Assembly (NCBI GenBank): GCA_028286825.1
Contig: JAQBQV010000002.1
Location: forward strand, 2,157 to 66,156
DNA from: Parcubacteria group bacterium
GTDB taxonomy: Bacteria; Patescibacteriota; Minisyncoccia; Phycocordibacterales; Phycocordibacteraceae
Length of the DNA stretch: 64,000 bases
Reading direction: 5' to 3'
The translations under genes and the position numbers were made by a program. Below the pieces are notes generated by a model that was given only the letters and a program-made list of their open reading frames with translations, searched no databases and was not told the DNA's origin. Positions 11,474 to 50,330 of the stretch are shown here, piece by piece (the first letter of the stretch is position 1; the number at the start of each line of letters is the position of its first letter).

Positions 11474-11522
11474 GATAAAGAGAGTATATCAAAGGACTTA
11501 ACGTCCTTTTGGCCTCTAGAAA

Positions 11523-11623: not shown

Positions 11624-11624
11624 T

Positions 11625-11648: not shown

Positions 11649-11654
11649 GTGGGT

Positions 11655-12218: not shown

Positions 12219-12219
12219 T

Positions 12220-13527: not shown

Positions 13528-13592
13528 GGTAAAAAGACAAGTGACGTTATCAGGTTCACTCGGTATTCAGAGCGTAGTGGTAGAATTCCTCT

Positions 13593-13976
13593 ATGTTTAA
13601 AAATACAGAAGCGTTCAGCAGCTATTCAGTTGATTCTATCGAAGAAGCATTACGATTTTATAAAGACAAACTTGGCTTAGTAGTTGCAACGACTAAGGAA
13701 GGGTTGGAAATAACACTGGATGGACGGCGCCTGTTTCTGTATCAGAAGCCAAATCATACTCCCGCGTCATTCACCGTTCTCAATTTTGTGGTTAATGATA
13801 TTGATGCTGCTGTTAAAGAGTTGGAGACAGTAGGAGTAACACTTGAAAAATATGATATGAATGAAATGCGTGCTGATGAAAAGGGTATCTATCGAGGGTC
13901 TTCCACTGGAAATGGTCCTGATATAGCTTGGTTTACGGATCCCGCAGGGAATATTCTGTCTGTTATTCAAAAATAA
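13593..13976 (+). CDS. VOC/glyoxalase family protein
   Basis: 127 aa with a glyoxalase-like pattern (ALRFYKDKLGL ... DPAGNILSV). TAGAAT 13581-13586 lies 6 nt upstream of the ATG. Confidence 0.75.
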   Translation: MFKNTEAFSSYSVDSIEEALRFYKDKLGLVVATTKEGLEITLDGRRLFLYQKPNHTPASFTVLNFVVNDIDAAVKELETVGVTLEKYDMNEMRADEKGIYRGSSTGNGPDIAWFTDPAGNILSVIQK

Positions 13977-13984
13977 ATCTGCTC

Positions 13985-14590
13985 ATGAGAAAAATAATCA
14001 CCACAACCTTTATAACCTTAGATGGTGTGATGCAGGCTCCAGGAGGTCCCGAAGAGGACACGGCAAACGGATTTGCCTATGGTGGCTGGCAATTGTCATA
14101 TCCTTCAGGCGAGACGCTGGACTCTAAGATGAGCGAATTCATGCATGCTCCGTTTGAGCTTCTCCTGGGGAAAACGACCTATACCATCTTTGCTTCGTAC
14201 TGGCCGACTGCGACGACTGATCTCGAGGTGGCCGATCCGTTTAACAGGACAAAGAAATACGTCGTCTCACATCACTCTTTTGAGCCCGGGTGGAGTAACT
14301 CCGTCTGTATTACCGGTGACGTCGTAGCAGAGATCAAGAAACTAAAAGAAGAAGAGGGTCCAGATCTGTGGGTGTATGGGAGTGGGGACCTCATTCAGAC
14401 ATTGCTCAAATACCACCTGATCGATCGCATGCATTTGTGGACATATCCGATCACCATTGGTACCGGCAAACGGCTTTTCTCAGAGGGAACCCAAGCGGAA
14501 AACTTTAAGCTTATTGACGCTCAGATTTCGACGACGGGCGTTATCTTTGCTACCTACGAGCCAGTCGGCGACCTAACTGTTAAAGCGTGA
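13985..14590 (+). CDS. dihydrofolate reductase-like (RibD C-terminal domain) family protein
   Basis: MRKIITTTFITLDGVMQAPGGPEED ... LWVYGSGDLIQTLL matches the family. The track start 13928 overlaps the upstream gene. Confidence 0.75.
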   Translation: MRKIITTTFITLDGVMQAPGGPEEDTANGFAYGGWQLSYPSGETLDSKMSEFMHAPFELLLGKTTYTIFASYWPTATTDLEVADPFNRTKKYVVSHHSFEPGWSNSVCITGDVVAEIKKLKEEEGPDLWVYGSGDLIQTLLKYHLIDRMHLWTYPITIGTGKRLFSEGTQAENFKLIDAQISTTGVIFATYEPVGDLTVKA

Positions 14591-37390: not shown

Positions 37391-38437
37391 ATGGCACAAT
37401 CTGACAAAATCCGTCCTTATTTTCTTATTTTACTTCTCGTTGGAGCAATCGCCCTCACGACCGCTGTCTTCTGGCCGTTTCTTAAGCCGCTCGCTCTAGC
37501 GGCGGTCTTTGCGGTTGTGCTGCAAGGTCTTTACAAGAGAATCTCTAAGCGCCTCGGTGGTTGGCCAAGCACATCAGCGCTTCTTACCGTCCTGATAAGT
37601 GTCTTTGTCATACTTCTTCCTCTGTCGCTCATCGGTGTACTGGTTGGGAATGAGGCGCACAATGTGTACACATCGCTTGATGGGGGAGGAGGGCAGACCT
37701 CGATTGCGCAGCTATTTGTGCGAGTCGACGAGTCGTTTGGCGGTACGATCCCAGGACTCGGTGAGTTCGCGCGCAACGCCTCGGTTGACGTTGACGCATA
37801 CACGAAACAGGGACTCCAGTGGGTGACCGGGAACGCGGGCGCTATCTTCTCAAGCATTTCGCACCTTTTCTTGGCTCTCTTCATCTTCTTTATCGCGCTC
37901 TATTATCTCCTTCGCGATGGCAAGCATGTCCGGAAAATGGTGATCGAGCTCTCTCCGCTCGACGATAGCGAAGATGCCGGCGTCTTCGATCGTCTCGAGC
38001 TCGCTATCAACTCAGTTATTAAAGGCAACTTAGTGATTGCGCTCGTCCAGGGAGTGCTCACTACGATCGGCTTCCTGACCTTCGGCGTGCCAAACGCAAT
38101 TCTTTGGGGGACGGTAGCGGCTATCGCGGCACTCATCCCAGGAATTGGCACCGCGCTCGTGATTGCCCCTGCCGTCGCCTTTCTCTTTATTGTGGGTTCG
38201 ACGCCGCAGGCGATCGGTCTCCTCATCTGGGGAATGCTCGCGGTTGGGCTTATCGATAACGTGCTTGGTCCAAAGCTCGTCGGGAAGGGGATGAACCTCC
38301 ATCCGCTTCTTGTGCTCTTATCGGTCTTAGGCGGGCTCATTCTCTTTGGCCCGGCCGGTATTTTCCTCGGCCCTTTATCGGTCAGCCTACTCTTCGCACT
38401 TTTATCAATTTATGTCGATGTCTCGCGCCGCGCCTAA
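37391..38437 (+). CDS. AI-2E family transporter (PerM/UPF0118)
   Basis: Multi-pass protein with the ...IPGIGTALV... and GP.LVG regions. TATACT 37377-37382 lies 8 nt upstream of ATG 37391. Confidence 0.85.
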   Translation: MAQSDKIRPYFLILLLVGAIALTTAVFWPFLKPLALAAVFAVVLQGLYKRISKRLGGWPSTSALLTVLISVFVILLPLSLIGVLVGNEAHNVYTSLDGGGGQTSIAQLFVRVDESFGGTIPGLGEFARNASVDVDAYTKQGLQWVTGNAGAIFSSISHLFLALFIFFIALYYLLRDGKHVRKMVIELSPLDDSEDAGVFDRLELAINSVIKGNLVIALVQGVLTTIGFLTFGVPNAILWGTVAAIAALIPGIGTALVIAPAVAFLFIVGSTPQAIGLLIWGMLAVGLIDNVLGPKLVGKGMNLHPLLVLLSVLGGLILFGPAGIFLGPLSVSLLFALLSIYVDVSRRA

Positions 38438-38489
38438 TAGCGATCCCTTTTATTCAAAAGCATACATACGCAGGGAGTATATAAATAAT

Positions 38490-38524
38490 CAGGGCCGTCC
38501 ATCGCTTAGCGATGGACGGCCCTG
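38490..38524. terminator. 16-bp perfect hairpin between convergent genes
   Basis: CAGGGCCGTCCATCGC tta GCGATGGACGGCCCTG. The T-tract is weak. Confidence 0.6.
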
Positions 38525-38536
38525 TCGTTCGCAGTC

Positions 38537-38953
38537 TCATTTCTGCGCTTCCGGTGGAAGGCATGCTGCACTGGTGCGATAGTCCCGTCGATTGAGTGCG
38601 ATTCGTACCACCATCTTTTTTTCATCGAGCGGAATCAAGAACACGGGCTGCAAGAACGTGTCGTCGACAGTGACCTCCACATCATCGAAGAGTGGATATG
38701 CCGGAATGGCAAGCGGCTTTCTCGCCAGAGCGTCGGTGACACTGAAGTGGATTACCTTGCCCTCTTCTTTTTCTGCGAAGGCGAAGTATCGTCCACAGAC
38801 TTTCCAGCCCGTGTCGTCAAGCGCCGTCATGAGTCGCTTCTGTATCGGTACCACAGAGAACGTCAGGTCTGCTGCTTTCACGGCTGAATCCGGCAGCGCC
38901 ATGGCGATGCCTAACAAGAGTGCCGTAACCGTACTTTTGATGCTGTGTCCCAT
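38537..38953 (-). CDS. secreted hypothetical protein (paralog of 39140..39550)
   Basis: Signal peptide MGHSIKSTVTALLLGIAMALP. Shares W.[VM]CG.[YF]FAFA....GKVI.FS with its neighbour. Start uncertain. Confidence 0.5.
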   Translation of the reverse strand: MGHSIKSTVTALLLGIAMALPDSAVKAADLTFSVVPIQKRLMTALDDTGWKVCGRYFAFAEKEEGKVIHFSVTDALARKPLAIPAYPLFDDVEVTVDDTFLQPVFLIPLDEKKMVVRIALNRRDYRTSAACLPPEAQK

Positions 38954-39139
38954 ACATACTCCCAGAGTTGGTGAATGAGGGTCCTCCTTACTAAACTCTA
39001 CCTGAAAGGAGCGATTTGTCAAACAGTATGGGAAGTTAATTTGTTTGGCGACAAAGAGAAATGCCGACAACGAACGGGTTGTCGGCATGTTCTTTTCCGC
39101 TTGTGAATCGAGAGCTGCTGGTGGGGCCGCTGCGTAGTG

Positions 39140-39550
39140 TTACCCGGCCACCTTTGCTGAGGAGCATGACCTAATCGTGAGATGGTCAACGATATTGGTT
39201 ACAAACCCGGTCACGTTGTTCTTGCTATCGAGTATGACCGAAGGCGACAAGAGATCCATATCCGCCCAGAGCCGAAGTGGAGCGAAGGACGCTGTCCGAT
39301 AGGCTGTGCGGACTCCTTCTCCGAAATATCTGTCATAGGAGAAGTAGATTACTTTACCGCTTGGTGAATCAGCAAAGGCAAAAAAGGTGCCGCACATCCG
39401 CCAATCCAGTTTCAGTGAAGACATCGATTGGTAGTCATCGCTCAATTCGATGAGTCGGATCTCAAGGTCCTTTGGCTCCACTGCAAGAGCATGAGTCGCT
39501 AGGGTCGCTGAAAAGAGCAGGGCAGTAACTTTGTGCAGCATGAGTCGCAT
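39140..39550 (-). CDS. secreted hypothetical protein (paralog of 38537..38953)
   Basis: Signal peptide MRLMLHKVTALLFSATLATHALA. AAAGGA lies 6 nt upstream of the chosen ATG. Confidence 0.55.
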   Translation of the reverse strand: MRLMLHKVTALLFSATLATHALAVEPKDLEIRLIELSDDYQSMSSLKLDWRMCGTFFAFADSPSGKVIYFSYDRYFGEGVRTAYRTASFAPLRLWADMDLLSPSVILDSKNNVTGFVTNIVDHLTIRSCSSAKVAG

Positions 39551-39678
39551 GTGCATTCCTTTCAAACGGTTGATCGGGAGTCCTGTCTGAACATTAGCTC
39601 TACGGTAGGAGGAATGAAAGCTTGTTTTCAAACGCGACTGGGGGTAGTGTTTCGGTAGGTTCAGAACAGGAGATCGCT

Positions 39679-39933
39679 ATGCGCACGAAGTATTGTGAGT
39701 GCGGACGTCATATTCGGATCCGCATCCAAAATCGGTGGGTTAGTCCTCGAGGGGACCACCCGCACTGTCGCAAGTGTTACCGATCGCACCGCGATTCGGT
39801 ACGTCAGCACCCACCAGCCCGCGAAGAGCCCCCAGCTCCTCGCGGGCTCTTCTTTTTCATAAAAAAGCCGCCCAGCCAAGGTGGCGGGCGGCGTCTCAAG
39901 ATAGGTGCGATCAGGAAGGAAGGTATCGGTTGA
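39679..39933 (+). CDS. possible small Cys-rich (zinc-ribbon-like) protein
   Basis: AGGAG lies 6 nt upstream of ATG 39679, and the CxC...CxxC pattern is present. However, the frame runs through two terminator hairpins before its stop, so its extent and reality are doubtful. Confidence 0.25.
   Translation: MRTKYCECGRHIRIRIQNRWVSPRGDHPHCRKCYRSHRDSVRQHPPAREEPPAPRGLFFFIKKPPSQGGGRRLKIGAIRKEGIG
39823..39857 (+). terminator. rho-independent terminator-like hairpin
   Basis: Sequence is GAAGAGCCC N12 GGGCTCTTC TTTTT. Confidence 0.55.
39861..39892 (-). terminator. rho-independent terminator of 39911..40486
   Basis: On the minus strand: GCCGCCC ... GGGCGGC followed by TTTTTT. Confidence 0.65.
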
Positions 39934-40486
39934 TGGAGTAGTTAAGTCCGAGGGAATTGGGGCGGACTTCGTAGCCGCCCTCGTCTCCGTAGCCGGCGAA
40001 GAGGATCGGAGTGTTCGCGGGTACGTTGCCGCAGACCCAGAGCCCGTGTTTGCGAGAGAGCGCCTCAAGCTCGTCTGCAAACGCTTTCACCTTTGCGACG
40101 GCGCTGTCAATCCAGGGCAAGTCGGGCCACAGCACTTCAGCCAGCCGCCGCGCTTTTTTGATTGAACGCTCATCGATAGGTCGCGTGGCGTACAGCTCGT
40201 GTGTCGTAACATCGCGGATGTCGTAGGGGTGCAAAAGGAAGTGCCGGGCGAACGCATCCTTTGAAAGAGGGCCCCGCGCGTCGTAAATGAGACCGTCGGG
40301 TGCCCAGACACCTGCGTGCCAGACCACGTCTCCTTTCATCAGACCCACGAGCGGCCAATCGAGCCCGTCATTTAGTGCGATCGCGAAAGCGTAGCACTCT
40401 CCTTCGAGAAAGCCGCTGCAATAGAGGTCATGCAGCATCTTCTTGTCCTGGGGGTTTTCGTCAAGTGTGTGAATGAGCGTCGGCAT
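39911..40486 (-). CDS. hypothetical protein with Cys...His...Asp pattern (papain/transglutaminase-like fold suspected)
   Basis: AGGAGA lies 5 nt upstream of the ATG. Contains GECYAFAIAL ... VWHAGVWAPDGLIYDARG, and 47478..48125 shows a similar pattern. Confidence 0.6.
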   Translation of the reverse strand: MPTLIHTLDENPQDKKMLHDLYCSGFLEGECYAFAIALNDGLDWPLVGLMKGDVVWHAGVWAPDGLIYDARGPLSKDAFARHFLLHPYDIRDVTTHELYATRPIDERSIKKARRLAEVLWPDLPWIDSAVAKVKAFADELEALSRKHGLWVCGNVPANTPILFAGYGDEGGYEVRPNSLGLNYSINRYLPS

Positions 40487-40607
40487 TCGTTTCTCCTAGG
40501 TGAGCGAGGCGGCTGACAGCCGCTTTCCAGATAGAGGAATACCACGAAATATACCTTGCGTCCACGAGCGTAACCTTAGGGCGAATGGCGCGGGTTACAA
40601 TAAACAC

Positions 40608-40919
40608 ATGAGCACCAATCCATTTGTGAATGCGCTTCTTGCGGCGGGCTATATTAGCCTCCTTGTAACGCTTATCTTTAACTCGCCCTACTTTATTAGC
40701 GACAACGAACTCGGGATGATCGCGCCCGTCATCATGCTCTCCCTCCTCGTTCTCTCCGTATCTCTCATGGGCTACCTCTTCTTCTATCAGCCAGTTATCC
40801 TCCTTATCGAGCACAAGCCGAAGGAAGCGACCGCTCTCTTCTTCCGCACCGTCGTCTCATTTGCCGTCATTACCCTCTGTATCGCCCTCGCCTGGTTCCT
40901 CCTCGGGAAGCTTCTCTAA
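40608..40919 (+). CDS. small integral membrane protein
   Basis: 103 aa with three hydrophobic segments. TACAAT lies 6 nt upstream of ATG 40608. Confidence 0.55.
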   Translation: MSTNPFVNALLAAGYISLLVTLIFNSPYFISDNELGMIAPVIMLSLLVLSVSLMGYLFFYQPVILLIEHKPKEATALFFRTVVSFAVITLCIALAWFLLGKLL

Positions 40920-40941
40920 CCCTTTTGGATTCACTGGCGGA

Positions 40942-40968
40942 CAAACGGCTCAGACGGTCTGAGCCGTT
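40942..40968. repeat. 27-nt palindromic repeat, copy 1 (left border of AT-rich island)
   Basis: CAAACGGCTCAGACGGTCTGAGCCGTT has 13-nt arms that are perfectly complementary around a central G. It is 24/27 identical to 47358-47384. Confidence 0.8.
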
Positions 40969-41207
40969 TCCAAAAAATGCTCAAGTTTTTGTTAGCCTCG
41001 ACGAGGCTTTAGAAAAACATAGTCCCGAGGAGGTGAGACTTTCCCTCGGGGAAGATTTGTGGGATGCTTTGAGGTATGTTCGAATCTTCTCGTCTCCGCC
41101 CGAAGTCCAAGTTCGAACTTTAAATTTTGATGGTTATAGTTCGTAGCGTTAGGGAGCTTTTCGGGTCAATGGCGGAGCTAGTCCTATTTTGATAAAATGA
41201 AGCTCCA

Positions 41208-43247
41208 ATGAGTAAAAACAACCACCTTGAAGCCTCTCTGAAAGCAATGGGCATTGCTCCAGAAGGCGTGCCGAAAATGGTAGAAGATGCTGAAGGAATT
41301 GTAGCCGGCGTACAGGCTATTCTTTCTGGTGAGCACAGCATGTCTGGGAAGGGGTTGATTTACGGAAGAATCCAGAGCGGAAAGACCCGAGCAATGATCG
41401 CAAGCTCGGCACTTTTGTTTGATCAGGGTACAAAGATTATTGTAATCCTGACTAGTAACATGAACGAACTTGTCAGACAGACATACGAGCGTTTCGATGC
41501 TGGTCTTACGCAGGTTTCCGTTCTCGCCAAAGAAGACGATCTTCCTGGCGCAATCATCCGCAATAAAATTGCGTTAGCAAATACAGACACAGATGCAAAA
41601 CTGATGCTTGTAATGCCAAAAGGTGCACAAGCTCTTGAGAAAACAAAAGAGTTTCTTGAGCAGGTCGATGCGAAGGATTATCCTGTCGTTATTTATGATG
41701 ACGAAGCTGATCAGGCATCATTGGATACTACTCGTGCGAAGAAAGGAAAAGGAATCGTCGCTGATCCGAGTACAATTTATAAAAACATTGAGCTTATTCG
41801 AGGTGCTGCAGGCTCACATGTTTTTATCGCTGTAACAGGTACACCCAACGCAAACCTCCTTCAAACAGAAGATGAGAGACCAGATGAGTTCGTTTTTATT
41901 CTGAAACCTGGTGACGGATATGTTGGTGGAAAGGATTACTTTGAAGCAGAAGAAATCTCCGCCAATAATTTTATGGTTGAGATACCAGCTGACGATCAGA
42001 CGATACTCGCTCAAAAAGATATGGGAGCAGGAATCCCATCGAGTTTACAAAGAGCGGTCATATCTTTCGTATTCAGAGCTACTCTAGCTAACTATAAGAA
42101 AATCATTTGCGAAGAAGGTAAGGGTTATCAGTTTCTTTGCCACCCAAGTCACAAGGTGCTTCCTCAAGGAAACGCTACTGCCTACATAAACACTATTCTC
42201 GATCAGCTCGCTTATCACCTTTCAGGTCAGGACACAGAATGCAAAGCCATTGTAGAAGAAGAGCTCACATTGGTTGTGAAAGAGCATGGTTTGGACTCAG
42301 CTGAATGGATTCCTTTGTTGAAGAAAGAGGCTTTGTCTTTGCTTCAGAGTGCCAAGGTCGTTCAAGTAAACTCTACTACTGGTAGCAAGATCGTATATTC
42401 TTCTGGACTAAATATCCTGATCGGTGGCAATTCTCTCGGGAGAGGAGTGACTATTCCTAATCTCATCACGACTTACTACACTCGTGGTGGCGGCAAGGTC
42501 TCATATGCAGATACACTCCATCAACACGCTCGCATGTTTGGTTACCGCCAAGCACTTTTGCCTTATATAAAGATTTACATAACCGAAAATCTCTATTCAC
42601 GTTTCCGAAATGTTGTACTTCAAGACGAGCGGTTGCGAGATTTCATTGAGAAACGAACAGCCGGTAGTCCTATACCGATAGTAATACCTGCAAAAGGCAT
42701 CAAGCCTACTCGAAGTAGCGTGCTGCCTGACTGCCAGCTCATAGATTCGGGACAAAAGTATCCGAACCCTATCGACGTGAAAAAACTTTCCTCTGTTCAT
42801 GGCAAGGTATTCAAGACAGCGGCGAAGCTTCTAGGGACAGAGAACTCTGATGTTGATGCTGTGAAGGAAGCAAGTGCGTCTCAAAAAGATAAAGAGATAG
42901 ATGTTGCATCGTTGAAAGAAATTATTGGCTTAATGGAGCTTGAAGAGAACGGGTCGCTTTGGAATCCAGATTCGCTAGAGGCGATTGTAAAAGCTCTGTA
43001 TGGCGACAAGATCAAGATATATCTCAATGTTCGTACTTCAGATCGTAAGGTAGCAGAGGGGGTCGTTGGAGGTTCCAGCCGATCAGGTATTCTTTACGGT
43101 GAAGAACTAACTCGAGGACTTGCTCAAAAGCAGCCTACGCTCTGGCTCCATTCTGTCAGCAGTCCTGAAGAAGGTGGTGTACGATTTGTGTACCCAACGC
43201 TAATACTACCGACAACCAAAGACGTCGTGATTATCAACAACGTCTAG
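41208..43247 (+). CDS. Z1-domain P-loop ATPase (methylase-associated putative restriction component)
   Basis: Walker A is GRIQSGKT and Walker B/DEAD-like is VIYDDEADQAS, as in Z1-domain proteins. It lies directly upstream of a C5 methyltransferase. Confidence 0.8.
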   Translation: MSKNNHLEASLKAMGIAPEGVPKMVEDAEGIVAGVQAILSGEHSMSGKGLIYGRIQSGKTRAMIASSALLFDQGTKIIVILTSNMNELVRQTYERFDAGLTQVSVLAKEDDLPGAIIRNKIALANTDTDAKLMLVMPKGAQALEKTKEFLEQVDAKDYPVVIYDDEADQASLDTTRAKKGKGIVADPSTIYKNIELIRGAAGSHVFIAVTGTPNANLLQTEDERPDEFVFILKPGDGYVGGKDYFEAEEISANNFMVEIPADDQTILAQKDMGAGIPSSLQRAVISFVFRATLANYKKIICEEGKGYQFLCHPSHKVLPQGNATAYINTILDQLAYHLSGQDTECKAIVEEELTLVVKEHGLDSAEWIPLLKKEALSLLQSAKVVQVNSTTGSKIVYSSGLNILIGGNSLGRGVTIPNLITTYYTRGGGKVSYADTLHQHARMFGYRQALLPYIKIYITENLYSRFRNVVLQDERLRDFIEKRTAGSPIPIVIPAKGIKPTRSSVLPDCQLIDSGQKYPNPIDVKKLSSVHGKVFKTAAKLLGTENSDVDAVKEASASQKDKEIDVASLKEIIGLMELEENGSLWNPDSLEAIVKALYGDKIKIYLNVRTSDRKVAEGVVGGSSRSGILYGEELTRGLAQKQPTLWLHSVSSPEEGGVRFVYPTLILPTTKDVVIINNV

Positions 43248-43287
43248 CCTCCTCGAGTTTTTTCTTGATTCTTGTTAGAATAAGGGG

Positions 43288-44367
43288 GTGAAGAAAGAAC
43301 CAAAACTTGTAGCAATTGATTTGTTCTGTGGTGTCGGAGGAATCACTCATGGATTTGTTCGTGAAAAAATCCAAGTAGTCGCAGGGATAGATAACGATCC
43401 CACATGCAAGTATTCATACGAACATAACAATAAATCTTCTTTCATTTGTGATGATATCGCAAATGTAAGTTCTGGGCGCATAAAAAAACTATATAAGGAT
43501 GCAGGCGCCGATATCAAAATACTGATCGGTTGCGCGCCTTGCCAGCCCTACTCCTCGCTAAATCCGAAAAGAGTTCAATATAAGAAAAAACACACCGCCT
43601 GGGAGCCCCTTGAGCATTTCATCAGGATCATTGAAGAGGTGAAGCCTCAAATAGTTTCTATGGAAAATGTGAAAGAGTTATCTGATGAGAAGAAATATCC
43701 TATCTTCAAAAGATTCCTTGCATGTCTCACAGAGAATGGTTATTCATACGCATATGAAGTCGTTGATACATCGACTTATGGAGTTCCACAAAAGAGAAAA
43801 CGATTAGTGTTGTTAGCTTCAAGAATGGGCGAGATAAGTCTGATATCTCCTACTCATAAAGATCCGGCAAAGATGAAGACGGTAAGAGATGCTATTGGCG
43901 ATTTGCAACCAATTCTTGATGGAGAAGTTTTTGCAAAAGATCGGTTACATCAAAGCAGTAAGTTGAGTAAGCTAAATAAATCTAGAATCAAAGCTACGCC
44001 AAAGAATGGAGGATCAGCAAAAGATTGGCCGGAGCATTTGGTCTTGGATTGTCACAAGTTGGATTCTGGGAAAACATACATGGCTACGGTGTATGGAAGA
44101 ATGCGTTGGGACGAACCTTCTCCCACAATCACTACCAACTGCCTTACTTTAGGAACTGGTCGTTTCGGCCATCCTACTCAAGACAGAGCAATTAGTTTGA
44201 GAGAGGCCGCCCTACTTCAGAGTTTCCCAAAGAACTACGATTTTATTGGTAAGGAAAAAATAAGTAAGACCATACTTTCTCGTCATATTGGAAATGCAGT
44301 TCCGGTTAGGTTGGCACAAGTAATTGCTCAAAGCATCAAGTTGCACGTTAATCAATATGCTGAATAA
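43288..44367 (+). CDS. DNA (cytosine-5)-methyltransferase
   Basis: Motif I is DLFCGVGG, IV is GCAPCQPYS, VI is SMENV, VIII is QKRKR and X is GNAVPV. GTG start. Confidence 0.9.
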   Translation: MKKEPKLVAIDLFCGVGGITHGFVREKIQVVAGIDNDPTCKYSYEHNNKSSFICDDIANVSSGRIKKLYKDAGADIKILIGCAPCQPYSSLNPKRVQYKKKHTAWEPLEHFIRIIEEVKPQIVSMENVKELSDEKKYPIFKRFLACLTENGYSYAYEVVDTSTYGVPQKRKRLVLLASRMGEISLISPTHKDPAKMKTVRDAIGDLQPILDGEVFAKDRLHQSSKLSKLNKSRIKATPKNGGSAKDWPEHLVLDCHKLDSGKTYMATVYGRMRWDEPSPTITTNCLTLGTGRFGHPTQDRAISLREAALLQSFPKNYDFIGKEKISKTILSRHIGNAVPVRLAQVIAQSIKLHVNQYAE

Positions 44368-44459
44368 TTAATAATAATTGAGTGGCAAAAAACTTAAGTG
44401 ATTTAGTTAGGTTTTTCAAAATTAGATCAGTGGATAACCCACTACATTTTTACGCTTAC

Positions 44460-44515
44460 ATGATTTAGGTTTGGACACCTCAAACCACTCTGGGTATGCT
44501 TTATACATGGCCCTC
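44460..44515 (+). repeat. imperfect direct repeat, copy 1
   Basis: ATGATTTaggTTTGGacaCCTCAAACCACTCtGG...TTATAcatGGCCC shares an exact 12-mer, CTCAAACCACTC, with 45272-45333. Confidence 0.4.
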
Positions 44516-44620
44516 AATTCCTGTATACTTTTATCAAGTCTCCCGAAGGTGAGCCGGGTTTTCGGTTCTAACATCGGGACACCACCACCGCCAGATGACC
44601 AAGTTAGAACTTATAAAAAT

Positions 44621-45130
44621 ATGACTATAATTTACATAATTATTGCGGGAGCTGTTGTATGGTGGGTATTAAAAACTCTCAGTGCTAATGCCCCGGAAAA
44701 GAGAATCGAGAAATTGGAAGAATTTGCAGAGACTATGCTGAGTTCGTATCGAACTACAAATAAAGTTTCGTATGGGCAAGATAACGATGATCCTGAAGTA
44801 TTGAGAATGAGAGACTGGTACACTCGCCTAAAAGAAAAATACAAGCACGATAAATCGCGTCTTGCTCAACTTGCAGAAGATTGGAAAGATTACACATACA
44901 GTCTGAGCAGTAAAAATATAAACAACTACTTGTCATTGGAGGCAGAAGACACTGAAAGCTCTAGTGACCATAGTGATAAAGCTCGGGGTTCGTATTTAAG
45001 AATTGAGGAAATTGAAAATCGATTTGCTGAGATGCTTGGCTCTCAATTTAGAGAGGAATTGGATGCTGAACGGAGAAAGAAGAAGCTGGAAGCAGAGGCG
45101 TTTTGGGCGACCCCAATAGAAGATAAATAA
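44621..45130 (+). CDS. membrane-anchored coiled-coil hypothetical protein
   Basis: N-terminal TM (MTIIYIIIAGAVVWWVL), then a charged helical region. The track start 44471 reads through a repeat. Confidence 0.5.
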   Translation: MTIIYIIIAGAVVWWVLKTLSANAPEKRIEKLEEFAETMLSSYRTTNKVSYGQDNDDPEVLRMRDWYTRLKEKYKHDKSRLAQLAEDWKDYTYSLSSKNINNYLSLEAEDTESSSDHSDKARGSYLRIEEIENRFAEMLGSQFREELDAERRKKKLEAEAFWATPIEDK

Positions 45131-45132
45131 AT

Positions 45133-45249
45133 ATGCGGATTAATCAGATAGAAATATACAATTTCCGCTCGATAAAAGAATTAGTGATAAATGAAGTCCT
45201 AGAAGTGGCAATAAATCCTGACGATATTCCATTAACTAAAATGGAATAA
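45133..45249 (+). pseudogene. N-terminal remnant of an SMC/RecF/OLD-type AAA ATPase
   Basis: MRINQIEIYNFRSIKEL is the characteristic N-terminal strand of ABC-type (RecF/OLD/Gabija-like) ATPases. The ORF stops after 38 aa, before any Walker A motif. Confidence 0.45.
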
Positions 45250-45271
45250 TCTACCGCACTTTGGCCTTTAT

Positions 45272-45333
45272 ATGATTTCGATTTTGGTGTCTCAAACCAC
45301 TCCGGTCATTGATTCCTTATATAGCTGGCCCCC
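45272..45333 (+). repeat. imperfect direct repeat, copy 2
   Basis: Sequence is ATGATTTcgaTTTTGGtgtCTCAAACCACTCcGG...TTATAtagctGGCCC. It lies just after the truncated ATPase remnant. Confidence 0.4.
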
Positions 45334-45371
45334 TAGAACTTTTGATGATGACAAACGAAGATTGGGCTCAT

Positions 45372-45401
45372 AAAAAGGCGACCCGGCCGGGTCGCCTTTT
45401 T
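45372..45401. terminator. bidirectional rho-independent terminator
   Basis: Sequence is AAAAA GGCGACCC ggcc GGGTCGCC TTTTT. Confidence 0.8.
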
Positions 45402-45540
45402 AAAACACAGGCTATGGATCCTCTCGCGATTTGTTGTGAGCGAGGCGTACTTTTCTAGCGCCGTTGGTGAGTGGCAGCAACACAATCTTTTCTCCCTCTC
45501 CGCAGGTTTTCTATAAGCCAGTACCTTTGCTCAATGTCCT

Positions 45541-45756
45541 CTATGCGAGCTTTGAACGAGGCGACTTGTTTATGGGTTTCAAACTCATTCCAATACCTTG
45601 AGCTTTTGCCTCTACTCCAGCCACTGGTCGTTGAAGTTTAAGGCCAATAACTCGAGTTGGCACTTTACCACCCATTGCGCGCAATTGTCCGATCTCCTTG
45701 GAAGTCCATGGTTGACCAGATTTTGCTATATATTTTGGTTTATTCATTTTCTGCAT
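45541..45756 (-). CDS. small basic hypothetical protein
   Basis: 71 aa. A 43-nt repeat copy (45823-45865) lies upstream. Confidence 0.45.
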   Translation of the reverse strand: MQKMNKPKYIAKSGQPWTSKEIGQLRAMGGKVPTRVIGLKLQRPVAGVEAKAQGIGMSLKPINKSPRSKLA

Positions 45757-45822
45757 TCTGGCTAGTAATTATCGGTTCGACCAGACCGATACATAAATGC
45801 TACTCCTGCTTACAAAAAACAC

Positions 45823-45865
45823 CCTGTGGATAGAATTACTTTGAAACGGTTGGGCAATTTTTCAA
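45823..45865 (-). repeat. 43-nt perfect direct repeat, copy 1 (upstream of 45541..45756)
   Basis: CCTGTGGATAGAATTACTTTGAAACGGTTGGGCAATTTTTCAA is identical to 46412-46454 and contains TTGAAA-N14-TTTCAA dyad symmetry. Confidence 0.9.
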
Positions 45866-45904
45866 TAAAAGCCGCGCTGATTAGTGAGGGAGTTTTTCAT
45901 TATT

Positions 45905-45935
45905 TAAAAAACCCGGCGCTAGCGCCGGGTTTTTG
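45905..45935. terminator. bidirectional rho-independent terminator
   Basis: AAAAAACCCGGCGCTAGCGCCGGGTTTTTG. It overlaps the stop codon of 45919..46326. Confidence 0.8.
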
Positions 45936-46326
45936 TTTTAGTCACAATAGCTTCACATTGCTTAATAGCCTTATCGAGCATAGAGTGAGTCGCTTTGAAT
46001 CCTTCTTCGTTATTCATTCGCATTACCGCACGGATTTTCTCTTCGCCAGACTGGAAAGATCCGAGTGAGTCACCCAGATTGTACATGGCGATTTTATACC
46101 CGTGCGATTCTGGGGAAGCATTATTATCGATACCAAGAGCAACGAGCCCCTCAATGACCGCGCCTCCGATGCAGCGTCGAGCCACCTTCGGAATTGCAGA
46201 CACTGAAGCTTCAAGAGGTCTGCCATTTTTGTCTGCGAAGTGGCTTCCCGTAGTGAACTTCTCCTCTGTATCCAGAATGTACATCTTGATCAGTTTTAAG
46301 AGCCGTAAAGTTACTTCGACCTTCAT
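45919..46326 (-). CDS. hypothetical protein
   Basis: GGAGG lies 5 nt upstream of the ATG. Its stop is embedded in the palindromic terminator at 45905-45935. A 43-nt repeat copy lies upstream. Confidence 0.55.
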   Translation of the reverse strand: MKVEVTLRLLKLIKMYILDTEEKFTTGSHFADKNGRPLEASVSAIPKVARRCIGGAVIEGLVALGIDNNASPESHGYKIAMYNLGDSLGSFQSGEEKIRAVMRMNNEEGFKATHSMLDKAIKQCEAIVTKTKTRR

Positions 46327-46411
46327 TGGAACCTCCTGTGGGTGAAAGATCTTGCGAGCCTTGCTTTGCAGCTCCAGCTCTATTCAGGATACGTCTAACA
46401 GGGGTAAACGT

Positions 46412-46454
46412 CCTGTGGATAGAATTACTTTGAAACGGTTGGGCAATTTTTCAA
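46412..46454 (-). repeat. 43-nt perfect direct repeat, copy 2 (upstream of 45919..46326)
   Basis: Identical to 45823-45865. Each copy lies 5' of a minus-strand small gene. Confidence 0.9.
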
Positions 46455-46468
46455 CTTAAGCGGTGGGC

Positions 46469-47134
46469 TTATTCTGTAATGGTATTGAGGTAAGTCTCAT
46501 CTTCGGGTTTGATCATAGTAGCGAGAATGCTGCCATTAATTAGCGCCAAGTTATTTCGCCCTTTTGCCCATTCTTTTGCAGCAGGAGTAAAGTCACTTGA
46601 AGTTACAATAATCCCCTTAACACCTCTATGGTGATCGTAACTTCCGTAAAGATTACGCACCTCTGGCTCAGATACATTGTTGCCGATCTTATAGTGCTTC
46701 ACTTGGACCATGGTTATCTGCGCTGATTTTTCCAGAACAATGTCTATGCCGTGGTCGCCAGTTTGCCCTGTATGTTTGTATTGATAACCCTTTTTGGAAT
46801 ATAAATATGCTACGAATTCTTCGAACTGACGATGGGTGAGGTCAAAAATTTGATTAAAATCCTGAATGTCTCCGTATTTCCAAGCCATTAGTTTTATGCC
46901 TTTTGCATGTTTAAATCGGTGTTTAAATAAATTCCACGCGAGGGCCAGGGTAGCGAGAAATGCGAAACCGACCAGGGCATTCCAGAGAAGTGTCGCAGTT
47001 GTTCCCCCTATGTTCTGGATAAACACATATAGGGCGATAACCACAATTCCTGCTAGAGCGAACATAAAAAGGCGGTTCTCAAAATGAGTCCACTTCCTTG
47101 TATGGCGGCGTCCATGGCGCTTGTATCGAGGCAT
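46469..47134 (-). CDS. membrane-anchored restriction endonuclease-like protein (Mrr_cat domain)
   Basis: Two N-terminal TM segments, then FEEFVAYLY...GDHGIDIV...VQVKHY...GIIVTSSDFT, which is the Mrr catalytic core pattern (D...(D/E)xK). Confidence 0.8.
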   Translation of the reverse strand: MPRYKRHGRRHTRKWTHFENRLFMFALAGIVVIALYVFIQNIGGTTATLLWNALVGFAFLATLALAWNLFKHRFKHAKGIKLMAWKYGDIQDFNQIFDLTHRQFEEFVAYLYSKKGYQYKHTGQTGDHGIDIVLEKSAQITMVQVKHYKIGNNVSEPEVRNLYGSYDHHRGVKGIIVTSSDFTPAAKEWAKGRNNLALINGSILATMIKPEDETYLNTITE

Positions 47135-47357
47135 ATAGTTTAGTGCAGTAAGACAAGTGCGTTATACAACATATTTCAGTTTTCAGCCAATTCAAATCGC
47201 AGTGTTAATGCGGTGATTTCAAAGAAGGGTGGGGGCTTCGAATTGTTCAATAGTGTGCTTATCCCACGAAAATTTGCGCTCGAAGTGGCAGGGCGCATTG
47301 AACAACTGGGCGAAGCCGGCAAAACAGTCTCCTACAAAGTGAAGTAATAAGCCGCTC

Positions 47358-47384
47358 CAAACAGCTCAGACCGACTGAGCCGTT
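47358..47384. repeat. 27-nt palindromic repeat, copy 2 (right border of AT-rich island)
   Basis: Sequence is CAAACAGCTCAGACCGACTGAGCCGTT. Confidence 0.8.
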
Positions 47385-47420
47385 CTGTACTGTCGCCTGT
47401 CTGCTAAAATCGTTCATTAG

Positions 47421-47450
47421 AAAAAAATAGGCCCCGCATACTGCGGGGCC
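47421..47450 (-). terminator. rho-independent terminator of 47478..48125
   Basis: On the minus strand: GGCCCCGC agtat GCGGGGCC followed by a T-rich tract (tATTTTTTT). Confidence 0.85.
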
Positions 47451-47477
47451 TCGAATGTACAACTTCTTTCGCCACTA

Positions 47478-48125
47478 CTATGCGGCGATTTCCGCCAATG
47501 CGACTTCCGCCATGCGCGCGAAGTACCTGTGGTCGACTTTCTCTCCGAAGACACGCCGGCATTTTCCATAGATGAGTGGGAACCAGCTCCAGTAGAGAAA
47601 CATCGCCTCGAAAGGGTGCTGATTGGGAGCCTTGCTAACAACGTGCGCCGCATAGGGGTCCAATCGAATACCGTGGTATCGGCAAAAGATGCTATTGGCG
47701 CCGTACGTTGAGTCATGCACGAATCCTTGTGCATCGACATTCCATACGTGCCACGCCCCCTCGTTGTTGAAACACGCATATCCGCTCCACAGCTCCATCC
47801 CAGTATCGAGCGCGTCGAGGATGGCATTTCCCCAGCATTGACCCGCACCATTCTTCGCTTTTCCGTTGTACGTATGGCCATAGGGTCGGATTCGGGTACG
47901 ACATTCCTGGCCGTGTTGGAGGAGGATCACCGCTGCAGCCGGGTGAGCCATTTCGAGTATCGATTGTCGGACGTCGATCTGTTGCAGAAGAACATCTCGA
48001 TTATGTCGCCAGATCTGCTCGGCGTTCTTTTCGTGCTTCGCGACGTTACCCGCGCTGCCGTTTAAGATCGCACTCAGCATTGCCTCAGTTGTGCGGTATG
48101 GAAACAGCCCTTTCAGATCGCGCAT
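47478..48125 (-). CDS. hypothetical protein with Cys...His...Asp pattern (paralog-like to 39911..40486)
   Basis: AAGGGG lies 5 nt upstream of the ATG. Contains GQCWGNAILDAL ... AWHVWNVDAQGFVHDS. The terminator at 47421-47450 is downstream. Confidence 0.6.
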   Translation of the reverse strand: MRDLKGLFPYRTTEAMLSAILNGSAGNVAKHEKNAEQIWRHNRDVLLQQIDVRQSILEMAHPAAAVILLQHGQECRTRIRPYGHTYNGKAKNGAGQCWGNAILDALDTGMELWSGYACFNNEGAWHVWNVDAQGFVHDSTYGANSIFCRYHGIRLDPYAAHVVSKAPNQHPFEAMFLYWSWFPLIYGKCRRVFGEKVDHRYFARMAEVALAEIAA

Positions 48126-48322
48126 GCCAGCCCCTTTATCGGTGAGAGTCTGATGGAGTTTTAACCTTAAATTCTACTCAAGTCAATGGACGACGATGGT
48201 CTTCCTTTCTAGTGCGGCCGCACCGCATTTCAGGCAGCGTGTACTCCTCGCGGTTACGCTGTTTACTTTTTTATATTTTGCCGTAGTGTCTCAGGTGGAC
48301 CTAACCCTGAAAGGAGTCCAGA

Positions 48323-48751
48323 ATGAATACGCATCTCCACCCGATCTCGGGTGTTCGCACAAATGGCATTCGGCTCGGCGCTGGCGCAAGACTGGAGGCT
48401 GGTGATCACTATGACTCAGCGAGCGGCACATGGGAGCGATGCCCGATCCCTGGTGCAAAGCTCGAACCGGGCTGCCGGGTTGTGTGGATCCGTTCCACGG
48501 AATTGTCGCCCGAAGGCAACGTCTTATTGACCTATCTTCGTGTGTACGGCTTCTATCTGACGCTCTCGCACCACTGGAAAGTCATCCCGTCGGCCAAGTG
48601 GAAAGATGACCCGCGGATGGACTGGAAAGTGCTGCACCCTGGCGCCGCTCAGGATCTGATCGATCTCGGCTTCGTGTGTGAACGCAGCGACAGTGGCATC
48701 TATGAGCTCACCGACGCCGGCCGCGACTACGGCATGCATTTTAAGCACTGA
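48323..48751 (+). CDS. hypothetical protein
   Basis: GAAAGGAG lies 6 nt upstream of the ATG. The terminator at 48763-48796 is downstream. Confidence 0.55.
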   Translation: MNTHLHPISGVRTNGIRLGAGARLEAGDHYDSASGTWERCPIPGAKLEPGCRVVWIRSTELSPEGNVLLTYLRVYGFYLTLSHHWKVIPSAKWKDDPRMDWKVLHPGAAQDLIDLGFVCERSDSGIYELTDAGRDYGMHFKH

Positions 48752-48762
48752 AGCCGAGCGCG

Positions 48763-48796
48763 AGCGGTTACCCCTCAGGTGACCGCTCCTTTTTTG
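48763..48796 (+). terminator. rho-independent terminator
   Basis: Sequence is GAGCGGTtACC cctca GGTgACCGCTC cTTTTTT. Confidence 0.8.
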
Positions 48797-48880
48797 TAAC
48801 AGCAAAATTGACTTTATATAGAAAAAAGTTATTATCACAAGCACGGTGGTATCGCCACTTAACCGTGAGGGAGAAACGAG

Positions 48881-49450
48881 ATGTTCTTTTTAAAAGAATG
48901 TGCCGACCGTTTTCCGTTGTATTGGTCCGATTGGGGGCCAAAGCTCGAGATGGATAGATTGGCGAGCTTCGTTACGATTTTGTTCTGCGCGGATTTCCTC
49001 CTGCTGGCATTTATTCAGACAGGTCCGGGGTTCGGTGGGCATGTAGTCGACGTATTGTCGGTGATCCTACTCGCGTGCGCGTTCTGCATCACCTTCGCGT
49101 TTGATGAACTACTGCACAAGCTTTCAGGAGGTCAGATAGACGATCGATCGCCCCTGCTTCTGGTTCTCTCAAGTAGTACGTATCGAGTGACCCAGACACT
49201 ACTGTTCTTCACTGTCATCATCTATAGCGCCTTCTTGCCGAACGGGCTTGGCGATGTGGCCATCTTGATGCGCGTCTCCGCTATTTTTTCAGTAATGGTT
49301 GGATTTCTGCTGATGATTTTCTATGCAGTGCCGAAATTCACCCTTCGTTGGGAAACGAAGCTGCGGGAATATCCGCCCAGAGGCTATATGGACGATGGCA
49401 TATACCGTTTACACACGCCGCCCAAGCCGAGGCTCGTTTCAAGTCGTTAG
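48881..49450 (+). CDS. integral membrane protein
   Basis: GAGGGAG lies upstream. 189 aa with about 4 hydrophobic segments. Confidence 0.55.
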   Translation: MFFLKECADRFPLYWSDWGPKLEMDRLASFVTILFCADFLLLAFIQTGPGFGGHVVDVLSVILLACAFCITFAFDELLHKLSGGQIDDRSPLLLVLSSSTYRVTQTLLFFTVIIYSAFLPNGLGDVAILMRVSAIFSVMVGFLLMIFYAVPKFTLRWETKLREYPPRGYMDDGIYRLHTPPKPRLVSSR

Positions 49451-49563
49451 GTCGCGCAACATACGATGGGCTCTGGAGGGTATCTCCAGAGCCTGTAGTT
49501 TTAAATAAAGTTCACCACAGGAGTACTTCTATTTTTATAGTTGCTGCCACTCCTTAAAAATTA

Positions 49564-49649
49564 GTCGCCCATGTCGTCCCAGTGACCAATTTCACTTACG
49601 ACTGCAAGGAGTTAGTGAAATGGAAATACTCTTTGTGATGACGGGCAGC
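49564..49649 (+). repeat. intergenic motif, long form (same hairpin insert as 400-487)
   Basis: Sequence is GTCGCCCATGTCGTCCCAGtgaccaatttcacttacgactgcaaggagttagtgaaatggaaatactctt...GACGGGCAGC. Confidence 0.85.
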
Positions 49650-49727
49650 AAGTTTGACATCATATAAATTAGAATGTAATTTCCATCTGGGCACTCCTTC
49701 AATCCACCCTAAGTAAAGGAGATCATT

Positions 49728-50330
49728 ATGGACGAGGATAAGACGGTCAATATTCAGGATATTTTGATGGGTCGTCGTACGGTTGCTCTCGTGGGTGAGA
49801 TCAATCACAAGTCGACAGATGAAGTCGCGCAAAGGTTGTTACGTCTGCAGGACGAGTCGCAGGAGCGGATCAATCTTGTCATTGACAGTGGTGGGGGCGA
49901 GAACCGTGCCGCGCTGCATCTCTGCGATCTACTTGGAACAGTGATGACTGCGCCGGTACGCGGAATCGCATTCGGGAGCTGTATGTCGGCGGCGACGTTC
50001 ATTCTCCTTCATTGCAGCGAGCGAGTTTCTACGCCCTATACCGAGTTCTTGATCCATTCGGGAAGGACGAGTGGCATTTCGATCACGGTCAATGACAAGA
50101 CGGCCGACGAATTGCAGCTGTTGGCCGACGAGAGTAAAGCTAATAGGGAAGAGATGGTCCGGCTCTACATGGCGAAGTTGAAGCTCCCGCGAAAACGCGT
50201 CGACCAACTGGTCACTCAAGGCGACCAGCGCTTCAATCGCACACTGAATGCCGTACAAGCGCTCGAAATCGGGCTCATCCAGAAGATCATTACCGAGAAT
50301 CTCGGCATCTTCCCGAAGCCGCCCGCCTGA
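49728..50330 (+). CDS. ClpP-family (S14) serine peptidase-like protein
   Basis: Contains NLVIDSGGGENRAAL...D and GSCMSAATFILL ... FLIHSG, aligning with the ClpP INSPGG / AASMG / IHQP regions. AAGGAG lies 6 nt upstream of the ATG. Confidence 0.7.
   Translation: MDEDKTVNIQDILMGRRTVALVGEINHKSTDEVAQRLLRLQDESQERINLVIDSGGGENRAALHLCDLLGTVMTAPVRGIAFGSCMSAATFILLHCSERVSTPYTEFLIHSGRTSGISITVNDKTADELQLLADESKANREEMVRLYMAKLKLPRKRVDQLVTQGDQRFNRTLNAVQALEIGLIQKIITENLGIFPKPPA

Follow-up and report, generated by a model that had tools for sequence, protein, structure and literature searches.

What do two nearly identical palindromes, one at each edge of a cluster of defence genes, tell about the way in which the cluster was acquired? 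The question is raised by a 64,000-nt stretch of DNA from a metagenome-assembled genome (MAG) of a Parcubacteria group bacterium, called here the window. Its most AT-rich part carries restriction-modification (R-M) and nuclease genes between two copies of a 27-nt palindrome, and a first-pass annotation, made from the sequence alone, had suggested that the palindromes might be attachment (att) sites and that the segment had inserted into, or recombined between, an array of paralogous genes. The analysis presented here argues for another origin. The DNA from ~40970 to ~47280 is probably a mosaic island lying between two resident copies of a dispersed palindrome: at least three horizontally acquired pieces would have piled up in a variable chromosomal region, and both palindromes would be older than the insertion, copy 1 being tied to a membrane-protein gene and copy 2 to a winged helix-turn-helix (wHTH) gene, with the foreign DNA between them. 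The island itself is nothing out of the ordinary: a composite defence island on a Parcubacteria chromosome, and a routine case of R-M and nuclease genes accumulating in a variable region.

The palindromes and the edges of the AT-rich segment

Copy 1 of the palindrome (40942-40968, CAAACGGCTCAGACGGTCTGAGCCGTT) is made of two perfect 13-nt arms around a single base (13+1+13, AAACGGCTCAGAC-G-GTCTGAGCCGTTT), and copy 2 (47358-47384, CAAACAGCTCAGACCGACTGAGCCGTT) is a degenerate version of it (AAACAGCTCAGAC-C-GACTGAGCCGTTC). As the first-pass annotation had stated, the two copies match at 24/27 positions; their central bases are opposite, in the centres ACGGT and ACCGA. With a degenerate pattern, the 64 kb yielded these 2 copies only, and 100 shuffles yielded no copy. 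The DNA fold of copy 1 was calculated at -13.5 kcal/mol (z = -5.7), and that of copy 2, in which the changes are uncompensated, was much weaker (-6.5 to -8.8 kcal/mol). It was confirmed that neither copy carries a T-run, and a consensus scan revealed no sigma-70-like promoter immediately beside either of them. Copy 1 lies 23 nt after the membrane-protein gene; the nearest facing gene starts are 238 nt from copy 1 (the Z1 gene) and 224 nt from copy 2 (the Mrr gene).

The bracketed segment is AT-rich, as had been reported on the basis of two counts (22/60 and 35/60 G+C) that proved exact. Its GC content (40970-47278) is 0.427, compared with 0.525 for the left and 0.511 for the right side, and no other 6.3-kb stretch of the window is as low (minimum 0.428 at 41001; 5th percentile 0.449); further AT-rich stretches are present at 1-5000 and 13000-14000. 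The right GC step falls at ~47250-47300, which is the start of a wHTH gene remnant and not the position of copy 2. On the right, the AT-rich DNA therefore ends within a truncated wHTH gene.

This remnant (47279..47347, + strand) is the 3' end of a gene for a transmembrane (TM) and winged-helix (DeoR-like) protein. Copy 2 follows a 44-codon open reading frame (ORF) whose last 22 codons are the C-terminus of the wHTH family, with 64-77% identity in tblastn to the corresponding part of the full-length genes of L011, L005, L037 and L028 (loci retrieved from other genomes and from metagenomes are designated by L numbers); the full-length L011 protein matches HTH_DeoR and HTH_24. The succession of wHTH gene and palindrome is found in L005, L011, L028, L037 and the window. 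The spacer from stop codon to palindrome, TAAGCC(A/G)(T/C)TCC, is common to L005, L037 and the window, and L011 and L028 share the palindrome alone. At the copy 2 locus 99 nt are 81% identical to L037, and both this homology and the right GC step begin ~70-110 nt to the left of copy 2, inside the remnant. Gene order thus indicates that copy 2 is the palindrome normally found after the wHTH gene and, from the comparison with L024 described below, that copy 1 is a resident element of the 3' flank of the membrane-protein gene. In L037 (211-1519), the wHTH-palindrome unit is followed by a DUF3800 gene in lower-GC DNA and then by an exonuclease gene; the GC content of the DUF3800 stretch is 0.45, versus 0.59 in the 211 nt available on its left.

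The island is flanked by two core genes. On the left, a small membrane protein is encoded at 40500..40919 (+ strand, probable ATG at 40608), with orthologues in L024, L011 and L039 (47-52% amino acid identity); on the right, a 215-aa Cys/His/Asp protein is encoded at 47478..48125 (- strand; MDB5244233.1, JWN18_103), with orthologues in L024 (49%) and L042 (51%). The latter gene has an intrinsic terminator at 47429..47451 (- strand; 10-bp stem with 8 GC pairs, then a T-run), which is the strong terminator pointed out earlier near copy 2 and is indeed canonical. The first-pass annotation had also placed one member of a Cys/His/Asp paralogue pair beside each repeat. This could be kept only in part: the left member (39911-40486), for which an exact look-up gave no record, is separated from copy 1 by the membrane-protein gene (40500/40608-40919), and the similarity of the pair is marginal (15/47 identities, pairwise E = 0.004). 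Insertion into a paralogue array was not retained, given this marginal similarity and the lack of the left paralogue in L024.

An empty site, as had been predicted for some relative, was found in L024, where orthologues of the flanking genes have one palindrome between them. The order there is membrane-protein gene, palindrome, terminator, right-flank orthologue and second palindrome; the first palindrome lies 8 nt past the membrane-gene stop and has the same central base (G) as copy 1 of the window, and the terminator hairpin is equivalent to, and at the same place as, that at 47429-47451. Relative to this configuration, 40970-47385 is extra DNA. L042, which has the only other homologue of the right-flank gene, was uninformative for the empty site, as the gene has a different context there, without palindrome. 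L024 is compatible with two histories: the island, the wHTH remnant and a palindrome may have been inserted together beside a resident copy, or the ancestral order may have been membrane gene-palindrome-wHTH-palindrome, the island having entered the wHTH gene in one line and the wHTH gene having been lost in the other. For the latter, the order in L005 (TspO, palindrome, wHTH, palindrome, DUF218) was used as a comparison.

The palindrome proved to be a dispersed repeat. The pattern ACNGCTCAGACNGNCTGAGCNGT was scanned in 185,579 species genomes, then in JGI metagenomes; since it demanded 19 exact bases, the sample is biased toward perfect copies. Nine loci matched in the species genomes, of which 4 in one Patescibacteria MAG (P6-10) and 1 in a Kaiserbacteria MAG; the matches L003, L006, L008 and L010 (Deltaproteobacteria, Pleurocapsa, Lachnospiraceae, Gluconobacter) had several mismatches and were treated as chance or unrelated. 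The JGI metagenomes yielded 31 loci. One 199-kb contig carries 5 copies, one 153-kb contig 4 copies and 1 degenerate copy, and a relaxed search within the fetched loci added 2 degenerate copies. After identical flanks had been collapsed, 33 distinct sites remained in the fetched loci and the window, with unrelated flanks and on contigs of GC 0.39-0.55; all appear intergenic, and 11 of them lie 3-41 nt past a stop codon. The family consensus is (CC)GAACGGCTCAGAC-S-GTCTGAGCCGTTC(GG), with the outer CC...GG often present, and variant copies have changes in a single arm, with no compensating change on the other. On the two contigs the density is ~1 copy per 30-40 kb, so that 2 copies are the number expected in a 64-kb window. 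No match was found in viral contigs, for which reason a phage att or phage operator origin was dropped, and the palindrome is absent from ~150 kb of related Parcubacteria loci fetched via protein homologues (L042-L056); it is therefore confined to a Parcubacteria subclade. Low-GC neighbour genes were no commoner at 16 palindrome gaps than at 209 other gaps (p = 0.32). The palindrome is thus a common repeat, with 33 sites and 4-5 copies per 150-200 kb contig, and shows no general relation to composition boundaries, both of which count against the att proposal.

The pieces of the island and their movement

The first of the three pieces (41070-44610) would be a cassette of two genes, for a Z1 helicase and a C5 cytosine methyltransferase (Dcm), with direct repeats derived from a tRNA-Ser gene at both ends; the repeats would be the remains of an integrase-mediated insertion at such a gene, which is still intact in another genome. 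In that genome (L050), an intact tRNA-Ser(GCT) lies directly upstream of the Z1 gene, the cassette begins right after it, and the last 23 nt of the tRNA are repeated perfectly 3.6 kb downstream, with no integrase within 10 kb of the cassette; one Z1-Dcm copy thus still occupies a tRNA-Ser att site, even though it has no integrase. In the window, repeat L (41070..41118, + strand) consists of a degenerate tRNA-Ser(GCT) 3' end, from T-arm to acceptor end, and the 17-nt element end GAAGTCCAAGTTCGAAC, and aligns to the L050 tRNA-Ser (9805-9896) and the sequence following it. Repeat R (44563..44610, + strand), a degenerate copy of the tRNA-Ser 3' end with GATGACCAAGTTAGAAC, stands at the junction of pieces 1 and 2; it is followed by a repeat of the first 17 nt of the element and then by different genes, which is what head-to-tail accretion would leave. 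Such repeats occur at these two sites only, and none is present near the right end of the island. No tRNA was detected in the window by ARAGORN or by Rfam at gathering thresholds, and no tRNA fragment by Rfam at E <= 10 over 40400-47600, neither Rfam search having given any other meaningful match; alignment of the tRNA 5' half to the DNA between copy 1 and repeat L scored below the shuffle mean. The real att-like repeats of the island are those derived from tRNA-Ser around Z1-Dcm.

The cassette moves without the palindromes. The window is 88.3% identical in nucleotides to L050 over 41078-44591 and 90.6% identical to L056 over 41187-44367, that is, over the two genes only, compared with only 68-71% for the S24/IMS core genes of the window and L056. 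The closest Z1 homologues (96, 87, 78 and 60% amino acid identity) all adjoin a Dcm gene, in four different contexts; the methyltransferase is always paired with a Z1 gene in L050-L056, and none of these loci contains the palindrome. The conserved tail of the element (44368..44562) is shared with L050 and partly near-identical to it; its 50-aa ORF (44422-44574, - strand) has no Pfam, NCBIfam or PHROG match. This tail, non-coding in appearance (L050:13190-13370), has in places diverged less between the window and L050 than the genes have.

The Z1 gene (41208..43247, + strand) encodes a DEAD-Z1-C helicase-like ATPase of the H/N-subunit type of CglI-like restriction systems, with an N-terminal superfamily 2 (SF2) ATPase and matches to Pfam Z1 (E = 9.5e-34) and PADLOC Helicase_II (E = 3.7e-70). 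The best PDB fold matches of its AlphaFold model (pLDDT 80.5) are HsdR of EcoR124I and other SF2 motors; the fold search with the whole model returned the helicase core only, and no PDB chain matched the protein in sequence, so that the C-terminal domain of H.CglI was not matched. In an alignment of 27 family sequences, Walker B (DDEAD) and residues of motifs V and VI (motif VI, QxxR) are invariant, and beyond residue 447 no Asp, Glu, His or Lys is invariant; hence no nuclease site is recognisable in Z1. The second gene (43288..44367, + strand) encodes the C5 methyltransferase (PF00145, E = 3e-61; TIGR00675). No third gene that could provide a separate R subunit is kept with the pair in seven contexts (the window and L050-L056). 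In CglI and NgoAVII, which consist of three genes each, the PLD-B3 nuclease is a subunit of its own and is driven by the DEAD-Z1-C subunit (Zaremba et al., 2014, PMC4267653; Toliusis et al., 2018, PMC5861437). Z1-Dcm is probably an ATP-dependent R-M module, and we infer that it would be a two-gene variant of the CglI type, the nuclease being unrecognised or supplied elsewhere. A two-gene Z1/Dcm cassette without recognisable nuclease thus circulates among Parcubacteria.

Piece 2 (44611 to ~45400) would be debris, in which a TM/coiled-coil gene is followed by the stump of an ATPase gene and by a copy of the piece 1 tail. The TM and coiled-coil protein (44621..45130, + strand) has no family match; its ORF had been listed from a TTG at 44471, and the gene probably starts at the ATG at 44621, just past the repeat. 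The stump (45133..45249, + strand) is the 38-aa N-terminus of an OLD/ABC-type ATPase and matches residues 1-20 of AriA, GajA and HEC-01A (E = 0.003-0.01). It is followed by a 60-nt diverged copy (45246..45305, 70%) of the piece 1 tail (44434-44493). A perfect 32-nt palindrome (TAAAAAGGCGACCCGGCCGGGTCGCCTTTTTA, 45371..45402) with A/T runs on both sides resembles a bidirectional terminator, between piece 2 and the minus-strand block.

Piece 3 (~45400-47135, - strand) would comprise the gene of a membrane-anchored Mrr-type nuclease and two small genes, each with one copy of a duplicated 43-nt element upstream. The small genes encode a 71-aa protein (45541..45756, - strand) with a weak match to a phage transcriptional regulator (phrog_323, E = 1e-4) and a 135-aa protein (45919..46326, - strand) with no family match; the 43-nt repeats upstream of them (45823..45865 and 46412..46454, respectively) are exact, as first described. 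The Mrr_cat nuclease (46469..47134, - strand; PF04471, E = 9e-30) has two hydrophobic helices in its residues 1-95, where no domain match was found; it matches PADLOC mREase_IV and PDC-S02, and is nearer to the PDC-S02 candidates. Profile searches upheld all the protein families that had been proposed for the segment, that is, Z1, C5 methyltransferase, Mrr_cat and the ATPase stump.

The region in which these pieces lie is variable in relatives. The interval between TspO and the wHTH gene is empty in L028, contains the palindrome alone in L005, and in L011 contains MscL, an exonuclease, PemK, HATPase_c_3, Vsr, Dcm and others. In L049 (4095-10324), which has no palindromes, the interval between TspO and an exonuclease-wHTH unit contains Peptidase_M78/DUF4411, MazG and an SLFN-g3 helicase fused to an S24 peptidase. 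As the contents vary in this way, including in palindrome-free L049, the variable region is independent of the palindrome, and the interval from the membrane gene or TspO to the wHTH gene is one in which defence genes have landed repeatedly in this group. The L011 cluster (8454-13503) encodes a PemK toxin, a MORC-like HATPase_c_3 protein, Vsr, a 461-aa Dcm and a 254-aa ORF without match, and lies between palindrome copies at 7256 and 14514, upstream of the full-length wHTH gene. Single genes bracketed by two copies are the wHTH gene in L005 (5627-6214, copies 561 bp apart) and the right-flank Cys/His/Asp gene in L024 (1578-2472, copies 868 bp apart).

What remains of the att proposal is the insertion of foreign DNA: the segment has low GC and a Z1-Dcm core of 88-91% nucleotide identity, versus 68-71% for core genes. 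The part assigned to the palindromes was lost to the dispersal of the repeat, the right junction inside the wHTH remnant, outside the repeat, and the palindrome-free movement of the cassette. A weaker form of the idea makes the palindromes crossover sites: a circular or excised segment made up of the island, the wHTH remnant and one palindrome would have integrated at the resident copy behind the membrane gene, either by a site-specific recombinase encoded elsewhere or by short-homology recombination over 27-31 bp, so that both ends would now have a copy; reversal of the reaction would restore a single copy as in L024, and the palindromes would be comparable with the borders of plasmid dif (pdif) or attC-type modules. 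This would account for the finding in L024 of one palindrome at the very place that in the window is taken by two copies with 6.4 kb between them, for the genes bracketed by two copies in L005 and L024, for the second Dcm-based R-M cluster between two copies in L011, and for the breaks of synteny at palindromes among relatives. It is contradicted by the cassette, which travels with its own tRNA-derived repeats instead, by the accessory genes taken up in palindrome-free L049, and by the lack of a general link between palindrome gaps and low-GC neighbours. Furthermore, a conserved crossover core is expected to be identical, and the two window copies differ precisely at the centre; the layout is 13-1-13, without the asymmetric spacer of dif or att sites; and no cognate integrase or recombinase is encoded in the window among the ORFs or domains between 38500 and 50000, in line with the earlier observation that the segment has no integrase. 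We consider such a crossover unlikely, and the evidence favours bystander status for the palindromes.

Certain observations nevertheless weigh against a mosaic between bystander palindromes. The explanation depends on both copies predating the island, and L024, with only ~50% identity in protein, does not allow the order of events to be read; one palindrome in L024 against two in the window is also what recombination at the palindrome would give. Two copies exactly at the edges of the lowest-GC segment are unlikely by pure chance (~5e-4, a rough post hoc estimate for two random gaps among ~65). Finally, the window has neither an intact tRNA-Ser nor an integrase that would explain the presence of a tRNA-associated cassette at a non-tRNA locus.

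The palindrome family and its possible role

The palindrome family is the more interesting by-product of this analysis, being an inverted repeat of 27 bp that hardly varies between the genera of an uncultivated lineage with small genomes. It is found directly upstream of grpE-dnaK-dnaJ in three genomes (L017/L040, L020, L023; GrpE by Pfam) and of groES in a fourth (L007), and also upstream of gatC, infC, proS, mscL and others. These 4 chaperone-operon placements compare with ~0.07 expected for 33 random gaps, an estimate that assumes ~1000 gaps per genome. In the loci examined, -10-like boxes lie 13-28 nt from the palindrome, several of them 5-7 nt before a start codon. With strict gene calls, 4/16 gaps are divergent and 2/16 convergent; a looser census gave ~7 divergent gaps among ~25. 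A role as terminator was rejected: there is no T-run, some sites are in divergent gaps, and separate canonical terminators are present beside the L017 copy and beside copy 2 of the window. A search of the literature for the palindrome sequence, and for the controlling inverted repeat of chaperone expression (CIRCE) or its repressor HrcA in Parcubacteria, found nothing relevant.

We tentatively favour, with not quite even confidence, a protein-binding site beside promoters, and the palindrome is predicted to be most likely bound by a dimeric DNA-binding protein. Arguments against it are that near-perfect identity over 27-31 bp across genera is more like repetitive extragenic palindromic (REP) elements than like a regulon, that degenerate copies are few and related genomes completely devoid of the palindrome, that the 19-base search pattern enriches for perfect copies, that no binding protein was identified, and that the window copies are 238 and 224 nt from the facing gene starts. 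A REP-like nature is quite possible, if somewhat doubtful: a hairpin repeat, spread or homogenised by a trans-acting enzyme or kept as a hairpin for transcript ends or stability, would have no specific regulatory role, and the island would merely lie between two copies. It would explain the near-perfect conservation over 27-31 nt on contigs of widely different GC (0.39-0.55), the restriction to some lineages with zero copies in the ~150 kb of L042-L056, the scarcity of degenerate copies, the seemingly intergenic position of all 33 sites, with 11 shortly after a stop codon, and the existence of orthologous gaps with and without palindrome (TspO-wHTH in L005 and L028; wHTH-DUF218 in L005 and L047). 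It does not explain the divergent promoter regions, where there is no transcript end, nor the recurrence upstream of grpE and groES, nor the positions after the membrane gene and the wHTH gene, which are kept between genomes ~50-65% identical in protein; moreover, a density of ~1 per 30-40 kb is low for classical REPs, and no Y1 transposase turned up in the loci.

In a more specific proposal, the two window palindromes would be operators tying the Z1-Dcm operon and the Mrr gene to the chaperone stress regulon, so that restriction would be coupled to stress. Each copy is upstream of the inward-facing outer gene, the palindrome is present at chaperone promoters elsewhere, and CglI, a characterised Z1 system, has been described as stress-sensitive (Zaremba et al., 2014, PMC4267653). 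The distances, however, far exceed the 13-28 nt that separate other sites from -10-like boxes, no sigma-70-like promoter is listed right beside either copy, copy 2 is degenerate and part of the wHTH remnant, and the same cassette functions elsewhere without palindromes; we regard the proposal as very improbable. It is also rather improbable that the palindrome is both a lineage-specific stress-regulon operator replacing CIRCE and a crossover point for cassettes, the window and L024 being products of exchange. If this were true, each small genome would offer some 10-25 sites with ~30 bp of perfect identity for the gain, loss and shuffling of cassettes such as the wHTH gene and defence islands. 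If the protein-binding site that we favour is an operator, it would be among the first cis-regulatory elements defined for bacteria of the candidate phyla radiation and would give a handle on their stress response; if the palindrome is a REP-type repeat, such elements persist even in genomes of ~1 Mb.

A few observations were made near other copies. TATAAT-like boxes are found 5-7 nt before the starts of grpE, a NUDIX gene and gatC (L017:12363-12402, L024:2472-2502, L033:8224-8251), and their closeness to the start codons suggests that transcripts are leaderless in these Parcubacteria. A second variable spot beside a palindrome is the gap that separates rpsI (S9) from the palindrome-grpE unit: it is empty in L020 (1037-1600) and contains different AT-rich toxin-antitoxin-like genes in L017 (12402-14470; DUF4258/DUF2283 and a membrane protein) and L023 (107-1660; HEPN and partner). 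In L041 (2632-3883), the palindrome that precedes proS lies 52 nt past the end of a gene for a reverse transcriptase (RVT_1, E = 7e-16).

Surrounding genes and comparison with known systems

The flanks of the island encode chromosomal functions (MFS transporter, AI-2E transporter, DUF218, ClpP-like protease, sigma-54 activator, M14 peptidases), and megablast of 38000-50000 gave no match in plasmids, phages or E. coli genomes. The right-flank protein and the Z1 protein are on record as JWN18_103 and JWN18_96 of a Parcubacteria group bacterium. Two adjoining secreted-looking paralogues are encoded at 38537-39088 and 39140-39631 (- strand); they have a homologue in MAG P6-10 (L002:1925-2326), and the divergent gap in front of it contains a palindrome copy at 54 nt from its start. 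At 11649-13527 of the window, an S24 peptidase gene adjoins a Y-family polymerase gene, as a UmuD/UmuC-like pair; in L056 (7138-9514), a PemK toxin gene lies between the two, and the Z1-Dcm cassette ~490 nt downstream.

The proteins of the island have characterised relatives. As in CglI and NgoAVII, a C5 methyltransferase gene stands beside that of a DEAD-Z1-C ATPase, whose predicted SF2 fold is closest to HsdR; unlike in these systems, the pair has no R subunit with phospholipase D (PLD) nuclease and B3 domain, and no nuclease motif in Z1. The nuclease of piece 3 shares with type IV Mrr enzymes the C-terminal Mrr_cat domain and the PADLOC mREase_IV matches; hydrophobic helices replace, however, the winged-helix Mrr_N domain that binds modified DNA in those enzymes. 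The cassette also resembles the tRNA-targeted islands of the tyrosine-integrase type, in that the element of L050 lies next to tRNA-Ser(GCT), with a perfect repeat of 23 bp at its borders, and the window cassette lies between two degenerate copies in a head-to-tail-like arrangement. It differs from such islands in that the window has no integrase and neither an intact tRNA nor a tRNA 5' half, and in that the array is at a non-tRNA locus.

The island as a whole can be compared with pdif modules and integrative mobile elements exploiting Xer (IMEX), in which an integrase-less segment likewise lies between two palindromic sites of ~27-28 bp that are also found elsewhere in the genome. The 13-1-13 site described here has no asymmetric centre of 6-8 bp, copies of it are located at housekeeping promoters, and the cassette travels without them. 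REP elements are dispersed extragenic palindromes, imperfect and present in high copy number, usually with an associated REP-associated tyrosine transposase (RAYT). The present palindrome is, like REPs and bacterial interspersed mosaic elements (BIMEs), short, intergenic, dispersed, hairpin-forming, homogeneous within a lineage and absent from related ones; it is, on the other hand, perfect instead of imperfect, of low density and without BIME-like arrays, and it is located repeatedly at chaperone promoters and, in genomes that have diverged, at orthologous positions. No RAYT turned up in 467 kb (loci and window), in which no profile search aimed at RAYT was made.

The consensus of CIRCE, the operator of HrcA, is TTAGCACTC-N9-GAGTGCTAA, and no canonical CIRCE is present in the same 467 kb. 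The window contains no candidate hrcA gene, no search aimed at HrcA having been made. The likeness to this system lies in the size and placement of the palindrome: it is a 27-bp inverted repeat that can be written 9-N9-9, is highly conserved and stands upstream of groES and grpE-dnaK-dnaJ. In contrast, the half-site is GAACGGCTC, which matches TTAGCACTC at 4/9 positions, the 'spacer' is itself palindromic and conserved, and the sites outnumber the needs of a chaperone regulon and adjoin unrelated genes.

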